IMG/VR virus record: IMGVR_UViG_3300028888_001839
Span: 121,001 to 185,000 of that record
From: a virus
Lineage: Duplodnaviria > Heunggongvirae > Uroviricota > Caudoviricetes
DNA length: 64,000 bases
Strand: one strand, 5' to 3'
This document shows, in pieces, positions 245 to 36,521 of this stretch. Numbering within the stretch: position 1 is the stretch's first letter; the number at the start of each line of letters is the position of its first letter. The notes under the pieces are model-generated. The model was not told the origin of the DNA, made no database searches, and saw only the letters and a program-made list of their open reading frames with translations. Made by a program: the position numbers and the translations under genes.

Positions 245-712
245 ATGACAAATGAAGAAATGAAAATCATATGCAAGGCATTGGAAGATAACTTTCTTGA
301 TGCATTTGACATTACATACGACCCGCTAGATAGCACATCTGCGAGGAATCACAAGCAGAATACTGTTGCCATTGTAGCCACTCTGGTGGACTACCTTCGG
401 GGAGACATTAAGGGGCTTCCCTCTCCTCTCTCCGAACTAGCCCGCAACAATGCCGATTCATCCTACCCCTCTCCGCCACAGGACAACGGCGACCCTAACC
501 CAGAAGACACGGAAACCCTGAAGTACCTCGGCTCGCTCGGCATTCAGTCCCTAGACGAACTCACGGGCTACAAGTACGATGATGCGGGGCACATTCTCCT
601 TCGCATCAAGGGACGATTTGCCGACTCTGGATGGATGGAGGACGACCCTAGAATCACTCGCCTCATCAACATAATGGAGACATTCAAGCTGCCGTTCCCC
701 CTAATAACATAA
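245..712 (+). CDS. hypothetical protein
   Basis: 155-aa ORF directly after the promoter. Confidence 0.7.
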   Translation: MTNEEMKIICKALEDNFLDAFDITYDPLDSTSARNHKQNTVAIVATLVDYLRGDIKGLPSPLSELARNNADSSYPSPPQDNGDPNPEDTETLKYLGSLGIQSLDELTGYKYDDAGHILLRIKGRFADSGWMEDDPRITRLINIMETFKLPFPLIT

Positions 713-727
713 TATAGTAGTGTCTTT

Positions 728-3700
728 ATGGCATTGTTTGCACACAAAGGAGCAACAAATATGCCTACTAGCAAGGACTTTTCCGTAGAAGACGAAGCCT
801 ATCTCGCTACCATAGCCGCAGAGCCTAAGATGACGATGGACGAGGTAGGCGCTGACATTGAAGAGCACGGACACGTCCCAGTAACTCCCGAAACCGCAAC
901 ACAAGACCCCTTCACGGCGAAGGGTTCTCTAGCTTATGCTCTTGACGAAGCCCTTTCCGCCGATACCGATTTGGAGAAGACCATAATGACTAGGGACAAG
1001 AACGACCATCTCGATTCGCATCTTACCAACCCTACCGACGATTTCCGCGACGAGACGAAGGGAGAGGTGGAGGGTACGACCTCTACTCCGCAAGGTCTTA
1101 TACAGCCCGTAGAATCCAACAAGGTAGGCGAAGGGCTAGAGCCTACAATCCAGCAGGACAAGGCGGTGCATGTGAAGGATTCCCTTGCTGAAGCCCTAGA
1201 TGCCATCACGATGGACGGAGCGGAGGAGATAGAGGCTAAGCCCCCAATCGGGAAAGATCCCGAGCCAGACCTTTCCAAGTACAATGAGGAGGAGGCTTCT
1301 CACATTCCCCTCAAAGCCCCAAAGATTCCACCTTCTCTAGGAGGATCGGAGGATACTCCCGATGCCAATGGGCTAGTATATGTCTCCGCAACCTTCACGG
1401 TAGATCCCGACAAGTATGTGTCCAACAACTATCGTCCTACCAATATGGGGAAAGCTCCAGATGCCCTTGCTGCACTAAAGCAGAAGAGGGATGCCATGAA
1501 CTCCAAGCCCGCCGCAAATCCTGAAGAGGAGGCGGCTCTTTCCGATTTGGGTACTCCCGAAGCGAAGGAGTCTGCTGCTTCTCCCGACGAGCCTACGCCA
1601 CAACAGGAGGAGGAAGCCGCAAAGGATGCGGACAAGGAGCAGAAGGAAGAGATTGAGGTAGAGGTGAAGGAGGAGTCCGCGTCAGCAATCCCTACCCCAA
1701 AGAAAGACGACAAGCCAGCACAGGACGAAGCCCCAGAGAAGGAAGTGCTGGACTATGCAACCTTCATCGACGGCTCATCTTTCATCTGCTATGACGAAGT
1801 AGCCGACATAGACTATTCAAAGATAGCGATGGATGCCGGCCCGAAGAAAGCCCCTACAAGGGCGAACTGCCAGACCACGTTTGCGCAGTGCAGAGCAAAA
1901 AATCCGCTCTTTTGCCGTTTCCACGGCCCTAAACTACTCGAGGCGGACATCAAGACGGCCCTCAAGTCCACTGTCGGACCGGGCTGCGTGGTACAGGTTA
2001 CGAAGGACAAGAATTCAAAGAACAAGTTCACGTTCCGTCTTACCGTTGGATGCCCGCCCTCCAAGAAGAAGATGGTGGAGAAGATGGTGCATATGTTCCT
2101 TACACAGAATCCGGGAATCACATCGTCTACCGAGGACTGGAATCTTGTGGGCAAGCACAAGCAGACCCAAGAGTTCGAGATGGATATCCTTCAGGCAGAT
2201 AATCCTCCGCAAAAAAATACTTGGGCTGATCAGGCTAAAGAAGATACCAAGGAAGCAATCAAGAATCATGAGAAGCAGGCCGTTGTAGGCGAGACGGCTC
2301 CAGCATTGGAGAAGAAAGCCGCAAAAGGAGAGAAGTGGCAGACGGTAGACGAAGACGTGGAGAACGAATGGGCTGATATTATAGACAACCTACACAAGAC
2401 TGCCATTCTTAACAACAATGAGTTTTTAGTCAACTTCAACAAGATAGCGAATCAGTTTGATGCCGCTCACGATGCTGGGGATGCTAATGGCTTGAAGAAA
2501 TCCCTTGAAGCATTGAAGGAAGAGATAGGGAAGTATGACGAGATAACAGGTGCTAAGAAGCCAGAGGCGGCTACGGTAGAGGCAGAGAAGGCGGTAGAGG
2601 GTGTTGAAGAGGAGACACCAAAGGGAGATGTTACGGAGGAGGTGGCTTCGGAAGAAGTGACGGAGAAACCGACAAAGAGCGAGGGAACAGTACCGGAAGA
2701 CGACGTAGCGGGTGAACAGACACCCCAGAAGAAAGAGAGTGTGGCAAAATCGGCAGGTGGCAAATCGGGCGACATGGCATCTTTCCCGATGGCACAGGAA
2801 GCAGAGTTTGCAGAAGCCTCTAAGGGGCACAAATTTGAAGAACTCTTTACTGGGTTTGAGACGAACAAGGACGGTTCGTATACTCTTAAGGCGAACCCGC
2901 ACAAGTTGTCTAGCCATGTAGAGAATCTTGCGAAAGCCCTTCAGAAAGCGGGATATGATGCAAAGACGATTCTGAACAATAGCGACGACTTGGATTTGGT
3001 GATTAAGCCGAAAGAGGAAGCGGGGGCGGCAAGCAAAGAGGAGGGCAAGCAGGGCGGCACGGTTCTACCTGCCCCTAATGCAGTTTCAAAGCAGAATGGC
3101 GGCAATGAGGCTTCTTCGCCACATAGCGAAAAAGTAAAAGAACTCACCAACAAGATTGGAGATATGCAGCAGCAGGTAAAGAGCATGGTGGAGAATGGCG
3201 GAGATACAGACACTATTAACACCATAAACCAGACATTGACTGGTGCTATTCTCACATTGTCCAAGCTGTCGAACCAGTACGATACCATAGACGAACTGGA
3301 GGCCCAGATGATAGCCGCAGGCGAGGATTCTGACTTGTTTGAGGTAGACAAGACCTTTGGGCAGAAGCTCATAGAAGATTCCAAGAAGAAAGCGGAGGAA
3401 CAGGCGAGTGCTCTACTCGGTGAACTCGAGTCCGCTTTGTCTGGAATCGAGAAATCGTTTGCAAGCGCACAAGAGACGGCGGCCGACAAGAAGAAGGGAG
3501 AGGTTGCTAGTTCCGTGGAGCAGACGGTAAAGAACCTCAGTGCCTATGTCTTTGGTGGCAAGCGTCCTCCGCAGGGGGTTGATTCCGTTGTGGACTATCT
3601 CGACTATCTGAAGGACGAACTAGAATCGGATGCGGAGGAAAACTTCACACCCGATGAGATGGCGGAGATTGAAGGCCAGTATTTCCTAGAGGATGCATAC

Positions 3701-4315: not shown

Positions 4316-7300
4316 ATGGCTATCAAGAAGGATGCGGCCAAGGCAGACATAGGGCCGAAGAAGCAAGTTAAGGCGACTTTCGCAGAGTGTACGGCGGAAG
4401 AGCCGTTGAAGTGCAAGTACCATGGAATCAAGCAGTTAGAGGGGATATTAAACTCACTATTCCAGAAGCACGGAGAGCAGAACACCTCTGGGCTGGAGAA
4501 ACAGGACGGGAAGTATCTTCTGCACTTCGCTTCCGCACAGCACCCCAAACAGGTGGTATACGACTTAATGAAAATCCTAGACGGCAAGGGATTTGGATGC
4601 AAGTATCTAGGGACAGACGAATCTGGAAGCGGTATAAACTATGAGATAGCACCGAAGGACGGCAAGGGTTTTGTCACCCCGGACGGAGAGGCGGAACTGG
4701 AAGATGCCGACATTCTCTCTTCTTCAAAAGCACCAGAGAACAACACCGTATCCAAGACCACCGTCACGAAGGAAGATCCGTTCGCTGAACTAGAGAACAT
4801 AGATACAGATGCCCTTATAGCAGAGAACGAACTGGATGCCGACCTTCTTGAAAACTTCGACGATTTGGAAGGGATAGACGAAGAGGCCACGGAAGACCTA
4901 GAGGCGGAACTGTTGGGGAACAACGAGTTCGACGATGAGATATTCACGGAGATGTCGGACGAAAATCAGGCGGCTGCGAAACTCACGGACGAGGACATAA
5001 AGAACCTCGTGTCCTTCAAGGGCGTCACGGATGACCATTTTGAGCAGAATCCCGACCTTCTTGATACCTACAAGGCGATAATCACCAACGGGAGGAATCC
5101 CAATGGTGATGCGCTAAACGAGCATCAGAAGGTGTGGTGGAACGACCTGCTGTCTAAGACGAAGAATGCGAACGAGTCGGAACTGCCTGCACTTAAAGTG
5201 CTTAAGGCTACGATGGCGAAGGTAAACGGAGGAGGAGAGCAAGGAGGAAAAGGTGAAAAGGGCGCCTCTCAAACCCCGTCCGAAGAGGACTATGAGAAGT
5301 TCGTTGGGGAACTTATCAAAGACCCGTTCCCGCCATTTATCAAAACCGATGCTAAACTTCTTAAGGAACTAGTTGAAAAGGGGACGATGAACGGAACTAC
5401 CCCAAGCAAGGCGGACTTAGAGAAGTGGGAGGATGTTTACGGCAATGGGAAGGGAACGGACGGAGCGGTCAAGGATGCGGTTAATGCCGCTTTTGCAAAA
5501 CTGAAGATGGATGGTGGAGGAAAATGGAGAAAGGAATTGACAGATGACGACATCGTAGCAGCATTCTCACCTGCATTTACAGGTGGGAACTTGTCAACCA
5601 ATTCTCACTATAAGGATTTATACAAATCGGTTATCACGAACCATCTCAATCCCAATGGGAACCCTCTAACAAATGGGCAGCTTGCATGGTTTAAGGGGGC
5701 ATCGGAAAAAGCCCATGCCGCAGGTGTCAACAACTATGCCGTTGAACTGTTGGACAAGATGCTAGAAGAAAAGGGGATGATAGAGAAGAAAGGCAACCCT
5801 TCAGGAGAAAGTGAAGAGAAACCGACGAAGGAATCTCTCATAGGTGAGATGGGCAATGTGATCGCCAAGATGAAGGGTGAAGGGCTTGACCTTACCTGGG
5901 ATGCGAAGAAGGGGAATGCCCTAGGCAAGGCTTTCGAGGATGCTATTAATGCTGACGACATAGCAGGTGCGGAGAAGGCGCTGAAAGACTTCAAGGATTA
6001 TGTGGAGTTCCTAGAGAGCGGTGGAGATGCCCCGGAGGATGATGAAGAGGGCATTACGACAGAGGACATAAAGGACTTCTTCACCAAATGCGGGTACACG
6101 GGGGGAGTCATGCATTCGGAAGACAACCTTGCCGCGACGAAGGAGGCTCTTGAAACAGGGAAATTCATGGGCAAGGCTCTCACCTCAACCAACAAGAAGT
6201 GGTTTGCGGCATTAGCCAAAAAAGAACCAGACCACAAGGTTGCTAATGCCATAAACAAAATGCTTTCCGCTGACAAGAAGCCCCACAAGTCAGGGGAAAA
6301 GGGAGCTGCAAAGGAAGCACTAGTCTCAGCTTTGAGTGGAAGCAATGAATCAATGGTTACAGATGAAATGCTTCAGCCATTGGAGCATGACGATGCTAAG
6401 TTCCCGCAGAACATTACCCAGAAGGAACTAGACGAGGCTATCAAGAAGGGCAAGAAGTTAGGCGGACATGGTGGGCTAGGTACAAGGCTAGTAGAGATAG
6501 ACGGCAAGAAGTATGTGTGCAAGGCTGCAACCGGCACTGGGGCTTCCGTCATTAGGAACGGATTCAATGCGGACATGGCTTATCGTGCTGGCGGAGTGTA
6601 TGCTCCAGATGCACAGTTATATGAATTTGGGGATGGGAAGACATACAAGCTCTCGGAGTTTATTCCGGGCAAGCGTCTCATAGATGTCTGGCAGACTGCG
6701 GATGAGGCTAAGAGGGATGAAATTCGCAAGGAACTTCTTAAGGGCTATCCTCTCGATGTTCTCTTCTCCAACTACGACGTGCTTGGCACTTCGCCGGAGG
6801 ATTCCATAACGGTCACAATCCAAGGGGCTGACGGAAAACCACAGAAGACCCATGTAGCTTTCAACAACATTATGATAGGCGACGATGGCCATGCCTATCG
6901 TGTTGACAACGACGGCTCTTTTGCAATGACTGGCACAGGAGGGATAAAGCACTCTAGCGGAGGGGGATATATAACGAAGGTGGAGGCGGAGAAGTGGGGG
7001 AAATGGGAAGACAGGCAATGGATAGACGATTTCCGCACATTGAGGAGGAATGAGAAGAACCTTGGGATATTCGACCGCTACTCTACTGCGGACATATTCC
7101 TTTCGGCAGGAAACATAAATCTTGATTCGGCGGTAGGCACGTTGCCGAAAGGAATACAGAAAGCATTGGCGAAGCCACTCTTTGAGATGAAGCAGATGAC
7201 TTGGAGAGCACTGAACCTATCTTTGGGCGGATACAAGAACGATGCTTTCGTGTCTATGGCTTTGGATGCGTCTTATGAGGCTTCCAAGAGAGGGCTAAGG

Positions 7301-29376: not shown

Positions 29377-29450
29377 TGGTTGTCCCTCCCCGATTCGAAC
29401 GGGGAACATGGGGATCAAAGCCCCGTGAGTTGCCATTACTCCAAGGGACA
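29377..29450 (-). tRNA. tRNA-Gln(TTG)
   Basis: Cloverleaf, anticodon loop CT-TTG-AT, encoded CCA. Confidence 0.9.
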
Positions 29451-29456
29451 ATAGAT

Positions 29457-29533
29457 TGGTGGAAGTGGCGAGGCTCGAACTCGCGACCCATGCATTAAAA
29501 GTGCATTGCTACTGCCAACTGAGCTACACTTCC
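29457..29533 (-). tRNA. tRNA-Lys(TTT)
   Basis: Cloverleaf, loop CT-TTT-AA, CCA. Confidence 0.92.
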
Positions 29534-29536
29534 AAA

Positions 29537-29615
29537 TGGTAGGCGTGGTGGGACTTGAACCCACAAAATCCCCGGATTAAGAATCCGGTGCATTGACCAG
29601 TTTTGCTACACGCCC
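29537..29615 (-). tRNA. tRNA-Lys(CTT)
   Basis: Cloverleaf, loop TT-CTT-AA, CCA. Confidence 0.9.
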
Positions 29616-30354: not shown

Positions 30355-30897
30355 TTAATTAAGACCTGCAATTTTAGATGCTCTTCTGTAATTGAAAGAC
30401 TTTGGTAACCGTTTTAGGGAAGGGACCTGATATGTCTCATCTACATTCAACCATCTCCATAGGAAATTCCGGTAAGTCTTCAATATCCCATTACAACACT
30501 TCATCACACAAACCCTTTCAAAGCCATAATCTCTTGTAGCTGTAGCACTCTCAAAACACACGATAGGGATTCCATCCAATGTTGACATCATTACACGTTT
30601 TGCATGGTTATTTGTGTGAATGTTCCAGTAATTCCTAGACCTCTTAATTTTGGAATATACAGTTTCAGGGGATTGTTTCTTCCCCTTGAAATGGTTTCTA
30701 GTGTGCTCACTTCGATCAATTAGTTCTAGGTTCTCAATCCGATTATCGCTTTTGATTCCATTTTTATGATGAACATCTTTCCCTCTTACTGCATCTTCTC
30801 CCCAGTATTTAATTGCAATCAGGCGATGCTCATCAATTCTCTTTCCGTGAATTTTGAGACTTTTGTATTTGTTTGGTGTTCCGTCTTTCTTTTTCAT
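30355..30897 (-). CDS. free-standing HNH homing endonuclease with NUMOD-like C-terminus
   Basis: RIDEHRL...DVHHKNGIKSDNRIENLEL. Confidence 0.9.
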   Translation of the reverse strand: MKKKDGTPNKYKSLKIHGKRIDEHRLIAIKYWGEDAVRGKDVHHKNGIKSDNRIENLELIDRSEHTRNHFKGKKQSPETVYSKIKRSRNYWNIHTNNHAKRVMMSTLDGIPIVCFESATATRDYGFERVCVMKCCNGILKTYRNFLWRWLNVDETYQVPSLKRLPKSFNYRRASKIAGLN

Positions 30898-31075
30898 GTT
30901 GCACCTATAAAATTACCGCTGCTATGCGGTAAGATGCAGAACGATAAGTTCTGGGCGCATAGCAGACGGCAAAAAGAGTGTTACTGTTTCTCATAGCATC
31001 TTACCTCTAATGAGTGGAACAGACAAAAGTATATCATATTCAGATTGTGCTGTCTATGATGAATCCAAAAAAAAA

Positions 31076-31696: not shown

Positions 31697-31721
31697 AAGT
31701 GATAAACTTGGGCAGATTTCA

Positions 31722-31793
31722 ATGAGTTCTGACGGGGGAATCGAACCTCTTCTCGACCTTAACGAGAACTAGCCACCAGGCTTCAGAACTCAT
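31722..31793 (-). ncRNA. tRNA-like RNA with an 11-bp closing stem and no encoded CCA
   Basis: ATGAGTTCTGA/TCAGAACTCAT stem, D-like hairpin AGCC-TGGT-GGCT, 6-bp stem with loop TT-AAG-GT, T-loop TTCGATT. Confidence 0.55.
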
Positions 31794-31825
31794 CACGGCT
31801 CTGCTATGACCGTCTTGCAAGAAGA

Positions 31826-32037
31826 ACTCAAATGGTGTGCTGTGACGCTAAAGGATACCTGCTAGCTCACCCGGTAAGTCTGTACGATTAGACCTTAATC
31901 TCTATGCATCATCTCACAGTTTACCCCAAATCGGGACTGCGAACGTCCGTCTCCTCTCACTGTCTTTAGGTTTGCACCGATGCATAGAGTCCACTCATTA
32001 TAAGATGGCTGCCTCTAAGCCTACTTTCCATTTGAGT
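31826..32037 (-). ncRNA. 212-nt structured RNA containing a 23S rRNA H42-H44 (L11-binding / GTPase-associated region) mimic
   Basis: 10-bp closing helix ACTCAAATGG/CCATTTGAGT; GUAGGCUUAGAGGCAGCCAUC...UAAUGAGU and GCGUCACAGCACA flank a 144-nt structured insert. Confidence 0.75.
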
Positions 32038-32042
32038 AAAGA

Positions 32043-32120
32043 TGGCGGGGTGTACGGGATTCGAACCCGTGAAATACCGGATCGACAGTCCGGCGGCGTA
32101 GACCACTGGCCCAACACCCC
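32043..32120 (-). tRNA. tRNA-Asp(GTC)
   Basis: Loop CT-GTC-GA, G73, CCA. Confidence 0.9.
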
Positions 32121-32697: not shown

Positions 32698-32783
32698 TGG
32701 CACGGGCGACGGGACTTGAACCCGCATTGCATTTCTGCTCTGCCTTGAAAGGGCAGTGGCTATACCAATTTGCCTACACCCGC
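32698..32783 (-). tRNA. tRNA with Glu(TTC) anticodon and long variable arm
   Basis: Loop CT-TTC-AA; 14-nt variable region with GCA-GAAA-TGC hairpin. Confidence 0.82.
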
Positions 32784-33269
32784 ATTAGAAATAGCATTGA
32801 TTCGTGTCTTAAGCTCTATAGAAGGAGGAACTTTATCAACATATTTCCAGATAAATCCTTTTTCCTTCTTACGGATTCCTTTGCAACAGTCCTTTACATG
32901 AGGTCTGTCGAACCCATAGTATGACACAGCAGAACAAGACTCATAGACGGCTAGCAGGACACCCGATAATGAAAACTGTCCTACCATCTTCTTATTATTC
33001 ATTGTATGTGTTTTGAAGTAATTCAATGTTGCGATAGACAACTTCTTTCTAGTCTCTTCGGGAAGTGTTCGCCCTAACATATGCTTTTGTGAATGGCGAG
33101 AACGAGGAATCAATTCAAGATTTTCAATCCTATTGTCTAACTTATCCCCATTCTTATGATGAACGTCCATTCCTTTGCAGGCTTCCTCTCCCCAGTGCTG
33201 TATAGCCACAAGACGATGTTCGTCAATTCGTTTGCCGTTGACTTTTCTTGCTTTGTATTGGTATTTCAT
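32760..33269 (-). CDS. free-standing HNH homing endonuclease, paralog of 30355-30897
   Basis: RIDEHRL...DVHHKNGDKLDNRIENLEL; likely start MKYQYK; stop codon lies inside the tRNA-Glu gene. Confidence 0.88.
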   Translation of the reverse strand: MKYQYKARKVNGKRIDEHRLVAIQHWGEEACKGMDVHHKNGDKLDNRIENLELIPRSRHSQKHMLGRTLPEETRKKLSIATLNYFKTHTMNNKKMVGQFSLSGVLLAVYESCSAVSYYGFDRPHVKDCCKGIRKKEKGFIWKYVDKVPPSIELKTRINAISNAGVGKLV

Positions 33270-33422
33270 AACGAAAAATAAAAGTCCGTAATGCGATGAG
33301 AGCCGCATTGAATGCGGGCGCATAACGGACAAATGGTTGTTGAACTTCATAGGGCTCTCATCTCCTATTGGTAGAACGAGTGGTAGTATACCACAAACCA
33401 TGCCGTGATGGCAACTACAAAA

Positions 33423-34091: not shown

Positions 34092-34129
34092 ACGGCGCAT
34101 ATTGTACCACAGTCAGATTTGGATGACAA
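34092..34129 (-). promoter_or_regulatory. promoter of the tRNA array
   Basis: CCCC-TTGTCA-17bp-TACAAT-ATGCGCCGT on the minus strand. Confidence 0.75.
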
Positions 34130-34253: not shown

Positions 34254-36521
34254 ATGAACATGAAAGACTTAAGAGAGATGAGGAAAAGCAAGGAAGCCCC
34301 TAAGTGTGGGTTCTGCGGGAAGTCTACAAATGATGGTGCAAACGTAGTCGTGGCCTCAAATGGGTTGTCAATCTGCGACCAGTGTGCAAGGAAGGTTATT
34401 GGGATAGTAGAGGCAGAAGAGGGAAAGGGGAAGAGCATCAAGGAAGAAAAAAGTGGGTTTCCTCTTACAGAAACAGCAGAGAGTGGAAAGAAGGAAGGAA
34501 GATTCGCTCTTGGGAGGATTCCTACGCCTAGAGAAATAGTTGCATTGCTTAATGAGCATGTAATAGGACAGGATGATGTAAAGAAGACTCTTGCAACTGC
34601 CGTGTACAACCATTATAGTAGATTGCGGAGCAGGAAGAGCATCTATGAGGATGACCTAAAGGATGTACAGGTAGAGAAATCAAATATTGTCATGATTGGG
34701 CCTACAGGATGCGGAAAGACTTTGCTCGCAAAGACAATCGCCAAGATTCTCAACGTGCCGTTTGCTATCGCAGATGCGACAACACTCACGGAAGCCGGAT
34801 ATGTCGGAGAGGATGTTGAAAACATTGTAAGGTATCTCTACAACAATGCGGATGGTGATGTGGAGAAAACACAAAACGGGATTATTTGGATTGACGAATG
34901 CTTTCCGGGTGATACAGAGGTGATGACTGAACATGGATTTAAGCAGTTTGACTCACTCTTGCCGACAGATAGAATCATTCAATGGAATGAAGATGGAACT
35001 ATGTCGGTTGTGGATTCAGAACGAATTGTGAAGAAGCCTTATAGTGGGGATTTGTTAACAATACGACATCGGAATGGTGATATAATTCACACGTCAACAC
35101 CTAATCATAATCGTGTTGTCATAGGGAGGGGAAAACACGGCGATAAATGGTATGTGAAGAAGATGGAGGCTATTAAAAGTCTTAATGGTGGCTACTTTGT
35201 TCCAGTTGTTGGGAAATATGATGGCCCAGGCTTTCCAATGTCAGATGCGGAGATTCAGTTCCATGTTGCATTTGCGGCGGATGGAAGTATCAAAAATGGC
35301 AAGTATGGATATATGAGTTTCAAGAAAGACAGAAAAAAAGAACGACTTGATGATATTCTTTCTCGACTTCCAAATCTAAAGTTTTCATATCGGTTTGATG
35401 CAAGGCGGAACTACCATAGTTACTACTTCGGAGACATTTCGAAAATGTCGTTTGTCAATGGGGAGAATAAAAAGTCTTTAGTTATAGACGGATTTATTCA
35501 TGCGACACTTGAGCAGAAGAAGTTATTCATTAATGAACTCCGTTATTGGGATGGACAGATAACATACGGTAGAAAAAACCCTTCTAATTCTATCTTTTTC
35601 ACATCTTCTAAAAAAGAAGAGATAGACTTCGTTCAGACTATAAGTCACCTTTGTGGTTTTTACTGCACATACTTTGAGCGAAAAAAGAAAGGTTATGCCA
35701 ATAGCTATGCTTGTGTATGCCGAGAAAAATCTTATCAAACCCAGCAACACACAACAGTGCAGAAAGAGAATTTCATCGGTGAGGTATACTGTGTGACAGT
35801 TCCGAGCCACATGATAATGATTCGACAGGAAGGGCGAGTTTGTATTACGGGTAATTGCGACAAGATTGCGAGCAAGACGCAGAATGTGTCTATTACGAGG
35901 GATGTAAGCGGGGAGGGAGTGCAGCAGGCATTGCTTAAGATTATAGAGGGAACTACGTGCCGATTCCCTCCTAATGGAGGTCGCAAGCACCCAGACCAGC
36001 CGCTTGTGGAAATTGATACTAGCAACATACTCTTTATCTGTGGGGGGGCTTTTGTTGGGCTTGACAAGATAGTGGAAAAGCGAGTCAAGAGTGAGAATGG
36101 GTCTAGCATAATCGGGTTTGGAGGAGATGCGACAAAGGAGAAGAGGAACCTTTCGCATAGGGTGAGGCCGGAGGATCTTGTGGAGTTCGGATTGATTCCT
36201 GAGTTCGTTGGAAGACTTCCAATCATAGCGGAAATGAGGGAACTTACTGAGGATGAACTTGTCAAGGTGCTCAAGGAGCCGAAGAACAGCATTACCAAGC
36301 AGTATCGGAAACTGTTGCGCCAGAGCGGAATATCGTTAGAGTATGAGGATGCGGCATTGAGGTGTCTGGCAAAGAGGGCAATTGAACGTAAGACTGGGGC
36401 TAGAGGTCTTAGGGCGGAAATGGAAGAGGTCATGAAGGAGATTATGTTCGAAGCACCAGACAATAGGGAGCAGGGGAAGGTTATTGTCATTACGGAAGAG
36501 ATGGTGAGGAATGCTGCATAG
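34254..36521 (+). CDS. clpX: ClpX AAA+ unfoldase, intein-containing
   Basis: C4 zinc finger CGFCGK...ICDQC, VIGQDDVKK.LA.AVYNHY, Walker A GPTGCGKT, TLTEAGYVGEDVE, RDVSGEGVQQALLK, IPEFVGRLP, TGARGLR. Confidence 0.95.
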   Translation: MNMKDLREMRKSKEAPKCGFCGKSTNDGANVVVASNGLSICDQCARKVIGIVEAEEGKGKSIKEEKSGFPLTETAESGKKEGRFALGRIPTPREIVALLNEHVIGQDDVKKTLATAVYNHYSRLRSRKSIYEDDLKDVQVEKSNIVMIGPTGCGKTLLAKTIAKILNVPFAIADATTLTEAGYVGEDVENIVRYLYNNADGDVEKTQNGIIWIDECFPGDTEVMTEHGFKQFDSLLPTDRIIQWNEDGTMSVVDSERIVKKPYSGDLLTIRHRNGDIIHTSTPNHNRVVIGRGKHGDKWYVKKMEAIKSLNGGYFVPVVGKYDGPGFPMSDAEIQFHVAFAADGSIKNGKYGYMSFKKDRKKERLDDILSRLPNLKFSYRFDARRNYHSYYFGDISKMSFVNGENKKSLVIDGFIHATLEQKKLFINELRYWDGQITYGRKNPSNSIFFTSSKKEEIDFVQTISHLCGFYCTYFERKKKGYANSYACVCREKSYQTQQHTTVQKENFIGEVYCVTVPSHMIMIRQEGRVCITGNCDKIASKTQNVSITRDVSGEGVQQALLKIIEGTTCRFPPNGGRKHPDQPLVEIDTSNILFICGGAFVGLDKIVEKRVKSENGSSIIGFGGDATKEKRNLSHRVRPEDLVEFGLIPEFVGRLPIIAEMRELTEDELVKVLKEPKNSITKQYRKLLRQSGISLEYEDAALRCLAKRAIERKTGARGLRAEMEEVMKEIMFEAPDNREQGKVIVITEEMVRNAA
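34899..35855 (+). mobile_element. intein with LAGLIDADG-type endonuclease at the ClpX Walker B motif (319 aa)
   Basis: IDE|CFPGDT...TPNHN...AFAADGS...ELRYWDG...VYCVTVP...ITGN|CDKI. Confidence 0.9.

Follow-up and report, generated by a model that had tools for sequence, protein, structure and literature searches.

The GTPase-associated centre of bacterial 23S rRNA is formed by the end of helix 42 (H42) together with helices H43 and H44 (positions 1051-1108 of Escherichia coli, whose numbering is used below). Here we describe a non-coding RNA element of 212 nt that has the same core secondary structure as this centre, with near-identical nucleotides at the positions building its tertiary fold, but is free-standing and placed outside the ribosome, in the genome of a phage. 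The element lies on the minus strand at positions 31826-32037 of a 64,000-nt stretch of DNA (the window in what follows), which corresponds to bases 121001-185000 of the 251,769-bp IMG/VR virus record IMGVR_UViG_3300028888_001839, rated as complete. An earlier note, made from the letters of the window, had taken the element for a phage RNA mimicking the L11/L10-binding centre. H43, H44 and the base of H42 are indeed reproduced, and this reading is backed by covariation within a family of related phage RNAs and by contigs from RNA libraries.

Several described systems resemble the element in part. Ribosomal-protein leaders, such as the Rfam L10_leader and the L1-binding leader of the L11 operon, are likewise extraribosomal RNAs that copy an rRNA protein-binding site for a free ribosomal protein, and it is through such loose rRNA mimicry in mRNA leaders that cells sense free ribosomal proteins. 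These leaders, however, are cis-acting parts of cellular mRNAs, placed upstream of ribosomal-protein genes and only loosely similar to the site imitated, whereas the phage element follows its model nearly letter for letter and lies among tRNAs; no ribosomal-protein leader of Rfam matched it even at E-values of up to 10. GOLLD and ROOL occupy the same niche, being ornate RNAs without an assigned function that are encoded by phages beside tRNAs. Neither these two nor any other non-coding RNA model of Rfam matched the element, and we know of no report that GOLLD or ROOL copies a ribosomal site. Finally, decoy RNAs, including 6S RNA (a mimic of the open promoter) and a phage pseudo-ToxI that mimics an antitoxin (PMC3475682), are abundant structured RNAs imitating the natural ligand of a host protein. 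The same logic may apply to the phage element, with the difference that the site imitated is a functional centre of the ribosome and that binding is, in this case, a proposal.

Comparison of the element with 23S rRNA

As references we used genuine 23S sequences from Citrobacter (L277) and from a clostridial genome (L280). The 5′ part of the element matches 23S positions 1054-1090 and the 3′ part positions 1091-1105 (Table 1). With the clostridial sequence these parts share 29 of 37 and 11 of 15 nucleotides, respectively, which amounts to 40 identical positions out of 52. Half of the 12 differences make up three compensatory double changes (pairs 1054-1105, 1058-1080 and 1082-1086), the other six being G1056A, U1061A, A1070G, A1095C, U1097C and U1101A. 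Chance origin of the match is excluded, as shown by the comparison with shuffled controls that the earlier note had suggested: with up to three mismatches allowed, the 29-nt H43 motif occurs once in the window, against 0.00 in 100 shuffles. The bacterial large-subunit (LSU) rRNA model of Rfam aligns 40 nt (31987-32026) to model positions 1098-1143, with a score of 16.1 bits and an E-value of 0.0057. The element is not part of a genuine 23S gene: contiguous rRNA beyond the 58-nt domain is absent, H44 is split by 144 nt, and the Rfam search detected no other rRNA in the 64-kb window, in agreement with the earlier note.

Read 5′ to 3′, the element is composed of: (i) one strand of a closing helix (ACUCAAAUGG/CCAUUUGAGU), in which all 10 pairs are perfect; (ii) the H43 hairpin, GGC-UUAGAGGCA-GCC; (iii) the segment AUCUUAUAAUGAGU; (iv) an insert; and (v) UUUA-GCGUCACAGCACA-CC, which leads into the second strand of the closing helix. 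The closing helix had been described as a perfect 10-bp helix, and reading of the sequence bears this out. H43 with its A1067 loop, H44, the A1070G and A1095C changes and the U1090-A1101 pair, all pointed out in the earlier note by comparison with E. coli, hold against the reference sequences. The insert, previously delimited as 144 nt (31849-31992), contains the 11-bp helix and the GCAA hairpin claimed for it, but its length required correction, since its last four nucleotides form a separate UUUA linker and 140 nt remain.

The phage element departs from the ribosomal centre in the following features: (i) H44 is interrupted between positions 1090 and 1091 by the 140-nt domain and the UUUA linker, and A replaces U at position 1101; (ii) a generic closing helix takes the place of H42; and (iii) the window copy carries G1070, C1095 and C1097, the changes at 1070 and 1095 being rare and affecting sites where rRNA is invariant. 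At positions 1087-1090, E. coli has GAAA but the usual bacterial sequence is GAGU; given this common form, the insert falls between U1090 and G1091, and a pair of U1090 with A1101 is possible. The site of uL10-(bL12)n in 23S rRNA consists of conserved H42 sequence with internal loops on the flanks of 1051-1108, and the plain helix of the phage element does not provide it. Across the family described below, the counterpart of H42 is a plain helix, with a detected length of 4-14 bp and a different sequence in each member. The L10-binding part of the original proposal is thus not upheld: the conserved region of H42 bound by uL10 has not been copied.

The element as a whole folds better than its shuffles (z = -3.34; 0 of 200 shuffles). 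Its minimum-free-energy fold misses H43 and H44, an expected outcome for a domain that depends on tertiary contacts.

Table 1. Parts of the phage element and the tRNA-related features on its two sides (window coordinates).
Feature	Position	Strand	Basis or remark
tRNA-Asp(GTC)	32043..32120	-	ARAGORN and Rfam; ends 5 nt upstream of the element; same transcription unit
Closing helix, 5′ strand (H42 equivalent; final two G = 1054-1055)	32028..32037	-	10 perfect pairs with 31826-31835
A1056 and H43 (1057-1081) with 1067 loop UUAGAGGCA; A1067 kept, A1070G	32002..32027	-	Rfam LSU alignment; motif unique versus shuffles
Junction 1082-1090, AUAAU-GAGU: A1082-U1086 pair, then G1087, A1088, G1089, U1090	31993..32001	-	GAGU as in non-enterobacterial 23S (L280)
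Insert, 140 nt, between U1090 and G1091	31853..31992	-	Sequence and minimum-free-energy fold
Linker UUUA (family consensus UUUG)	31849..31852	-	Family base counts
H44 hairpin and 3′ strand (1091-1103), GC-GUCACA-GC-A-C-A; A1095C, U1097C, family-specific A1101	31836..31848	-	Family and 23S comparison
Closing helix, 3′ strand (starts with C1104, C1105)	31826..31835	-	Pairing with 5′ strand
Degenerate tRNA-like element, downstream of the mimic RNA	31726..31789	-	tRNA-Sec model, 20.4 bits (sub-threshold)

A family of phage RNAs with a covarying rRNA-like core

Two pattern scans of IMG/VR were performed. An 18-nt pattern of the H43 loop recovered at least 119 stretches, nearly all of them not rRNA and with flanks that are alike, and an independent pattern of the 3′ module recovered at least 120 further stretches. 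A covariance model (R1) was built from alignment A1, composed of 31 short members with the window copy among the seed sequences. Over the 200 loci fetched by the two scans, R1 gave 200 matches at E <= 0.001; a few of these loci are double, and a few others are partial, weak or genuine rRNA (e.g., L057, L014, L132 and L166). In all, at least 159 different elements were distinguished; they measure 100-433 nt and agree in architecture and in the site of insertion. What had been presented as a single curiosity therefore belongs to a very large family. The window copy scores 94.8 bits with R1 as a seed member, and members outside the seed 45-118 bits. Its 3′ module (UUUA-GCGUCACAGCACACC) follows the family pattern of a U-rich linker, a GC-GUNNNA-GC hairpin, A1101, C1102, A1103 and the closing strand.

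With R1, members were also confirmed in cultured phages of three hosts: Pseudomonas phage pf16 of Pseudomonas putida (KU873925.1, approximately 29415-29605, minus strand), Aeromonas phage 4_4572 of Aeromonas hydrophila (MK813943.1, approximately 75080-75365) and Cronobacter phage GAP32 of Cronobacter sakazakii (JN882285.1, approximately 289514-289759). The element is unannotated in all three. BLAST points additionally to Ralstonia phage RSP15, Xanthomonas phage XacN1, a Vibrio phage, Paenibacillus phage Pd_22F and other Pseudomonas phages. A BLASTN search of GenBank phages with the whole 346-nt intergenic stretch of the window gave no match, owing to the shortness of the conserved modules; with a query of 65 nt from a typical member, GenBank phage sequences are retrieved. 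In 185,579 species genomes the 18-mer of the 3′ motif is rare (69 matches). About 41 of these matches are strongly supported by R1 and four more are weak or truncated; they come mostly from contigs of metagenome-assembled genomes and represent many phyla. The remaining matches (e.g., in Camelimonas, Thiothrix, Fluctibacter and Citrobacter) were rejected as chance occurrences lacking the 5′ module. Chance matches make up about one third of the 69 (L212, L216, L247, L266 and others), and motif counts from large collections thus need confirmation with a model.

The earlier note had allowed that the element might match a motif already catalogued. Rfam 15 contains no dedicated family, and its only matches on members are weak LSU matches of 16-31 bits; the searchable full-text literature yielded no description of a phage RNA family that mimics the GTPase-associated centre. 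In a catalogue of 10,006 candidate structured RNAs from IMG/VR (PMC10690425), the candidates are reported not to overlap predicted rRNA and the motif goes unmentioned, although the family may be contained in it unnamed.

The base-pairing of the family is well supported by comparison. In alignment A1, 92.9% of the cells are paired, against 33-51% in controls with slid partners, and none of 500 shuffles reached the observed covariation score. All eight modelled pairs of the closing helix covary, as do all five pairs of the helix at the base of the insert. A blind scan for mutual information over 159 elements gave pairs 1058-1080, 1082-1086, 1054-1105, 1057-1081 and 1055-1104 as the five highest (1082-1086 ranking second), all of which are known rRNA pairs. 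The covariation of the family thus falls on pairs known from rRNA, and the phage RNAs and the 23S centre have the same covarying pairs.

Base frequencies were taken only from members found through the pattern of the opposite end (n = 63 for 5′ positions and n = 95 for 3′ positions), which avoids ascertainment bias. G1059, U1060, G1071, C1072, A1073, A1077, G1093, U1094, A1098 and the pairs 1091-1100 and 1092-1099 are each kept in approximately 94-100% of members, and all of these fold-building positions are kept in the window copy. Conservation is lower in the loops: A1067 is A in 50 of 63 members (79%), G1068 is G in 42 of 63 and A1070 is A in 49 of 63, while A1095 is A in 85 of 95 (89%) and positions 1096 and 1097 vary freely, which makes 1095-1097 the most variable part of the H44 loop. 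A1101 is present in 93 of 95 members; the UUU of the linker is kept in more than 90%, its last base being G in 83 of 95 and A in 11 of 95. The window copy is a typical family member in its core, with minority states at four positions: C1095 (3 of 95), the A of the linker (11 of 95), G1070 (13 of 63) and A1056 (21 of 63).

Fold roles were assigned to the conserved nucleotides from PMC6239185 and from the crystal structures. In the rRNA domain A1067, A1070 and A1095 are without tertiary contacts, and A1095 contacts cofactors (PMC6239185). Since it is the fold nucleotides that are nearly invariant in the family and these three that are kept less strictly, selection appears to act chiefly on the fold.

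Three characters that are missing from real rRNA, namely A1101, the UUUG linker and the fixed insertion point, are common to members from phages of unrelated hosts. The mimics of the three cultured phages moreover keep GAGU and A1101, where the gamma-proteobacterial rRNAs used for comparison have GAAA and U1101. Among isolate genomes, most true carriers have no 23S sequence in their assembly. These shared characters, including GAGU in phages of gamma-proteobacteria, argue for a single origin followed by spread among phages, and not for repeated capture of host rRNA. It is most improbable that the element is a functionless piece of host 23S rRNA, either captured or decaying as a pseudogene, although the 40 of 52 identical core positions could be ascribed to such an origin. 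A remnant of this kind is contradicted by the family characters shared across unrelated hosts, by helices upheld through compensatory changes and by the lack of flanking rRNA sequence.

The inserts are 41-318 nt in length and mostly unrelated to each other. In the smallest members the insert is nothing but a hairpin of approximately 41 nt, and the function common to the family should therefore lie in the rRNA-like core. L019 (3106-3214) is an example of a minimal member. Some modules recur in sub-families. One of them, found in about 20% of inserts just before the insert-base helix (e.g., in L095, L022, L086, L097 and L010), consists of CACCCC, a 3-bp hairpin with a GNRA or UAAC loop and a covarying closing pair, and GGUAAGG; another recurring sub-motif is GUGCGAAAUG. 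The strict sarcin-ricin motif (AGUA, a GNRA hairpin and GAA, with the bulged-G arrangement) was found in 1 of 114 non-redundant inserts, that of L042 (3690-4066, minus strand), whose 309-nt insert contains a near-perfect sarcin-ricin hairpin (AGUACGGGAGGAA).

The insert of the window copy contains neither the CACCCC-hairpin-GGUAAGG module nor a sarcin-ricin hairpin; it does contain GUGAGAGGAG, without the bulged-G arrangement. Its contents are: (i) a 3-bp base helix (GGA/UCC); (ii) an 11-bp helix of 31979-31989 with 31900-31910 (CUCUAUGCAUC/GAUGCAUAGAG); (iii) a hairpin with a GCAA loop at 31969-31978 (GGU-GCAA-ACC); (iv) an ACAGU/ACUGU helix with inner hairpins; and (v) two predicted hairpins at the 3′ side (31877-31894 and 31856-31876). 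The second and third of these had been pointed out before and are present in the sequence. Taken on its own, the insert folds no better than its shuffles (z = -1.68; 10 of 200). A single word of 10 nt is all that it has in common with any other member. The sole related copy among the matches listed is L283, an IMG/VR contig of 223 kb with an equal covariance-model score and, as printed, an identical aligned sequence; because this only relative looks identical, the interior helices of the insert are predictions. Among the 159 members examined, the insert has no relative on which covariation could be assessed.

Further observations were made on individual loci. Two different copies of the mimic lie close together in L055 (5125-5361 and 5442-5707) and in L234 (3996-4344 and 5204-5386), so copy number varies and duplication occurs. 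In L026, a GOLLD RNA (685-1176, minus strand, 164.8 bits) and a compact mimic (4487-4597, minus strand) are found in one tRNA region. The tRNA array of L092 includes a weak, sub-threshold match to YrlA (Y RNA-like; 2270-2339, plus strand, 31.6 bits), approximately 165 nt upstream of the mimic and separated from it by two tRNAs.

Genomic setting and presence in RNA libraries

The phage originates from sheep, goat and bovine gut metagenomes, as judged by read-index matches, and its record has inverted terminal repeats. The element, which is single-copy in this phage according to model R1, occupies a 346-nt gap inside an array of 22 tRNA genes on the minus strand (33608 to 29377) and starts 5 nt after tRNA-Asp. 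On its 3′ side lie a degenerate tRNA-like element and tRNA-Leu(UAA). Promoter-like sites on the minus strand were found at 34129 and 33414, and a terminator-like hairpin at 30913. The immediate neighbours are tRNAs and HNH endonucleases, with no ribosomal-protein gene nearby.

Part of the stretch is contained in six metatranscriptome runs, according to the read index. The four runs examined, from at least three ruminant-gut samples, gave zero-mismatch contigs covering 31715-32019, 31838-31990, 31856-32024 and 31879-32005. The first of these spans the mimic together with the degenerate tRNA-like element at 31726-31789. Two of the zero-mismatch contigs run straight into Illumina adapter sequence, and this points to short fragments present in abundance. 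The contigs support the existence of a stable RNA, without proving its transcription, ends or level. Their depths (176 versus 2-10) and the uncovered stretches of the array are not readable as expression level or as absence of expression.

The setting of the family was analysed in 132 non-redundant members. Clustering of the open reading frames within 4 kb revealed no protein family present in more than six loci. A tRNA on the same strand lies within 500 nt of 69 members, and none is present within 3 kb of 43 members. The element follows a tRNA at a distance of 30 nt or less in 30 members and precedes one at such a distance in 28, and no particular tRNA identity is linked to the family. A search for the RNA-binding domain of uL11 was negative for this phage and for the records of 50 further carriers, of which 18 have a completeness of at least 90%, and positive for all control genomes.

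Other features of the window were recorded alongside. The tRNA array is broken by two open reading frames for HNH_3 homing endonucleases, at 32760-33401 (213 amino acids) and 30355-30897 (180 amino acids), both on the minus strand. The degenerate tRNA-like element has an 8-bp acceptor-like helix, a T-loop GGUUCGAUUCC and a short D-arm, and was not called by ARAGORN. An open reading frame on the plus strand (34254-36521) encodes a 755-amino-acid ClpX-like AAA+ protein with matches to the ClpX zinc finger, AAA, AAA_2 and ClpB D2-small; its ATPase segments (residues 146-215 and 535-658) are approximately 320 residues apart, as if a large insertion, perhaps an intein, lay between them.

Candidate partner and function

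With no recurrent protein neighbour and no uL11 encoded by the phages, the RNA must have its partner in the host, in a component that many phyla share. The isolated 58-nt rRNA fragment binds uL11 through the C-terminal domain of this protein; uL11 is exchangeable, and both RelA activation and the action of RF1 depend on it. In the ribosome, the C-terminal domain of L11 is tightly associated with H43 and H44 (PMC2586802), and viruses that tamper with ribosomes favour exchangeable ribosomal proteins (PMC6375957). By analogy with the 58-nt fragment, we propose, with a probability of roughly 0.45, that the element acts in trans as a stable RNA, adopting the fold of the 58-nt domain and binding host uL11 away from the ribosome. 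The pattern of conservation lends modest support to recognition of the fold and of the surface seen by uL11, in preference to the contacts made by factors or by thiostrepton.

According to this proposal, the element would be transcribed together with the phage tRNA array and trimmed, probably by tRNA-processing enzymes. Its long closing helix would join the two ends, giving a compact domain like 23S 1054-1105 with H43 docked on H44, from which the variable domain would exit between U1090 and G1091. The free-standing domain may then bind host uL11 through the C-terminal domain of the protein, as the 58-nt fragment does, and the resulting ribonucleoprotein could compete with ribosomes for exchangeable uL11, altering RelA activation, RF1 action and the docking of factors.

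Several points weigh against this proposal. Binding of uL11 is argued from likeness to the ribosomal domain. The insertion into H44 and the U1101A change, both absent from real rRNA, could alter the surface read by uL11. A sponge for uL11 would need concentrations like those of ribosomes, and contig depths cannot give abundance; RNA libraries, moreover, can contain DNA, so that transcription is supported and not proven. The insert of the window copy lacks comparative support, and the length of inserts (up to 318 nt) with their recurring sub-motifs suggests that many members do more than bind uL11.

A wider scheme, which we consider speculative and somewhat doubtful, would make the element a portable 'stalk-base' RNA of phages infecting many phyla. 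Such an RNA would recruit uL11, and the ribonucleoprotein would capture RelA, GTPases or rRNA-directed toxins, switching off the stringent response or a ribosome-targeting defence, with the insert adjusting the target from lineage to lineage; the sarcin-ricin loop carried by at least one of these lineages would complete a miniature factor-binding site.

Among the alternatives to uL11 binding, the free domain, with or without uL11, might serve as a decoy that traps EF-G, the EF-Tu ternary complex, IF2, RelA or a defence or competitor toxin modifying the site. Phage tRNAs have been proposed as an answer to tRNA-targeting defences, and the siting of the element among such tRNAs parallels this idea. 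The retention of A1067 and A1095 in most members, although the fold does not need them, would fit a decoy, as would the sarcin-ricin hairpin of L042, which represents the other half of the factor-binding site. On the ribosome, A1067 touches the T-loop of the incoming aminoacyl-tRNA (PMC2586802), and a toxin for the target site exists, since Tre23 ADP-ribosylates H44 at approximately 1095-1098 (PMC8661411). It is nevertheless this segment that is the most variable of the H44 loop (1095-1097), and the window copy with C1095 and C1097 is a poor fit to exact mimicry of a factor site or of a Tre23-like target, which counts modestly against a decoy. The RNA also lacks the sarcin-ricin loop and bL12, both of which GTPases require for docking on the ribosome, and the strict sarcin-ricin hairpin is confined to the one insert mentioned above, which is not that of the window. 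We consider a decoy function unlikely.

It is likewise improbable, in our view, that the rRNA-like core, perhaps coated with uL11, is a nuclease-resistant clamp for a functional payload carried by the insert (an aptamer, an antisense RNA or a protein-binding module) and differing from phage to phage. The broad size range and mostly unrelated sequences of the inserts, the modules recurring in sub-families, the invariant insertion point with its covarying base helix, and the large, helix-rich insert of the window copy are all in line with such a scaffold. It does not account for the minimal members, which keep the core with a plain hairpin and no payload, and a mere clamp would not need loop nucleotides identical to rRNA across hosts of several phyla; in the window copy the supposed payload, taken alone, folds no better than shuffled sequence.

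Less probable still, and by a clear step, is a cis-acting element of the tRNA operon, i.e., a uL11-sensing or processing signal that would tune the maturation or stability of the neighbouring tRNAs in a manner analogous to ribosomal-protein leaders. The location directly after tRNA-Asp in what looks like one transcription unit, bounded by the promoter-like and terminator-like sites, and the members lying within 30 nt of a tRNA on either side speak for it. The 43 members with no tRNA within 3 kb, that of GAP32 for instance, and the lack of an associated tRNA identity speak against it, as do RNA contigs that cover the element alone.

Binding of host uL11 by a trans-acting RNA thus remains the reading we prefer, and the family is of interest in its own right. 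A free-standing, near-exact phage copy of a ribosomal functional centre is apparently undescribed in Rfam 15 and in the searchable literature. The window adds to the family a ruminant-gut member with RNA-library contigs, the rare C1095 and G1070, and a large insert that has no relative except L283 among the matches listed. Recognition of the family would account for one of the unannotated gaps that recur in the tRNA arrays of phages, and the element would provide a compact scaffold of natural RNA for binding proteins. Because cultured phages carry members, the question is directly testable; if uL11 or the docking factors are bound, the RNA would represent a new viral route to manipulate translation or the stringent response.

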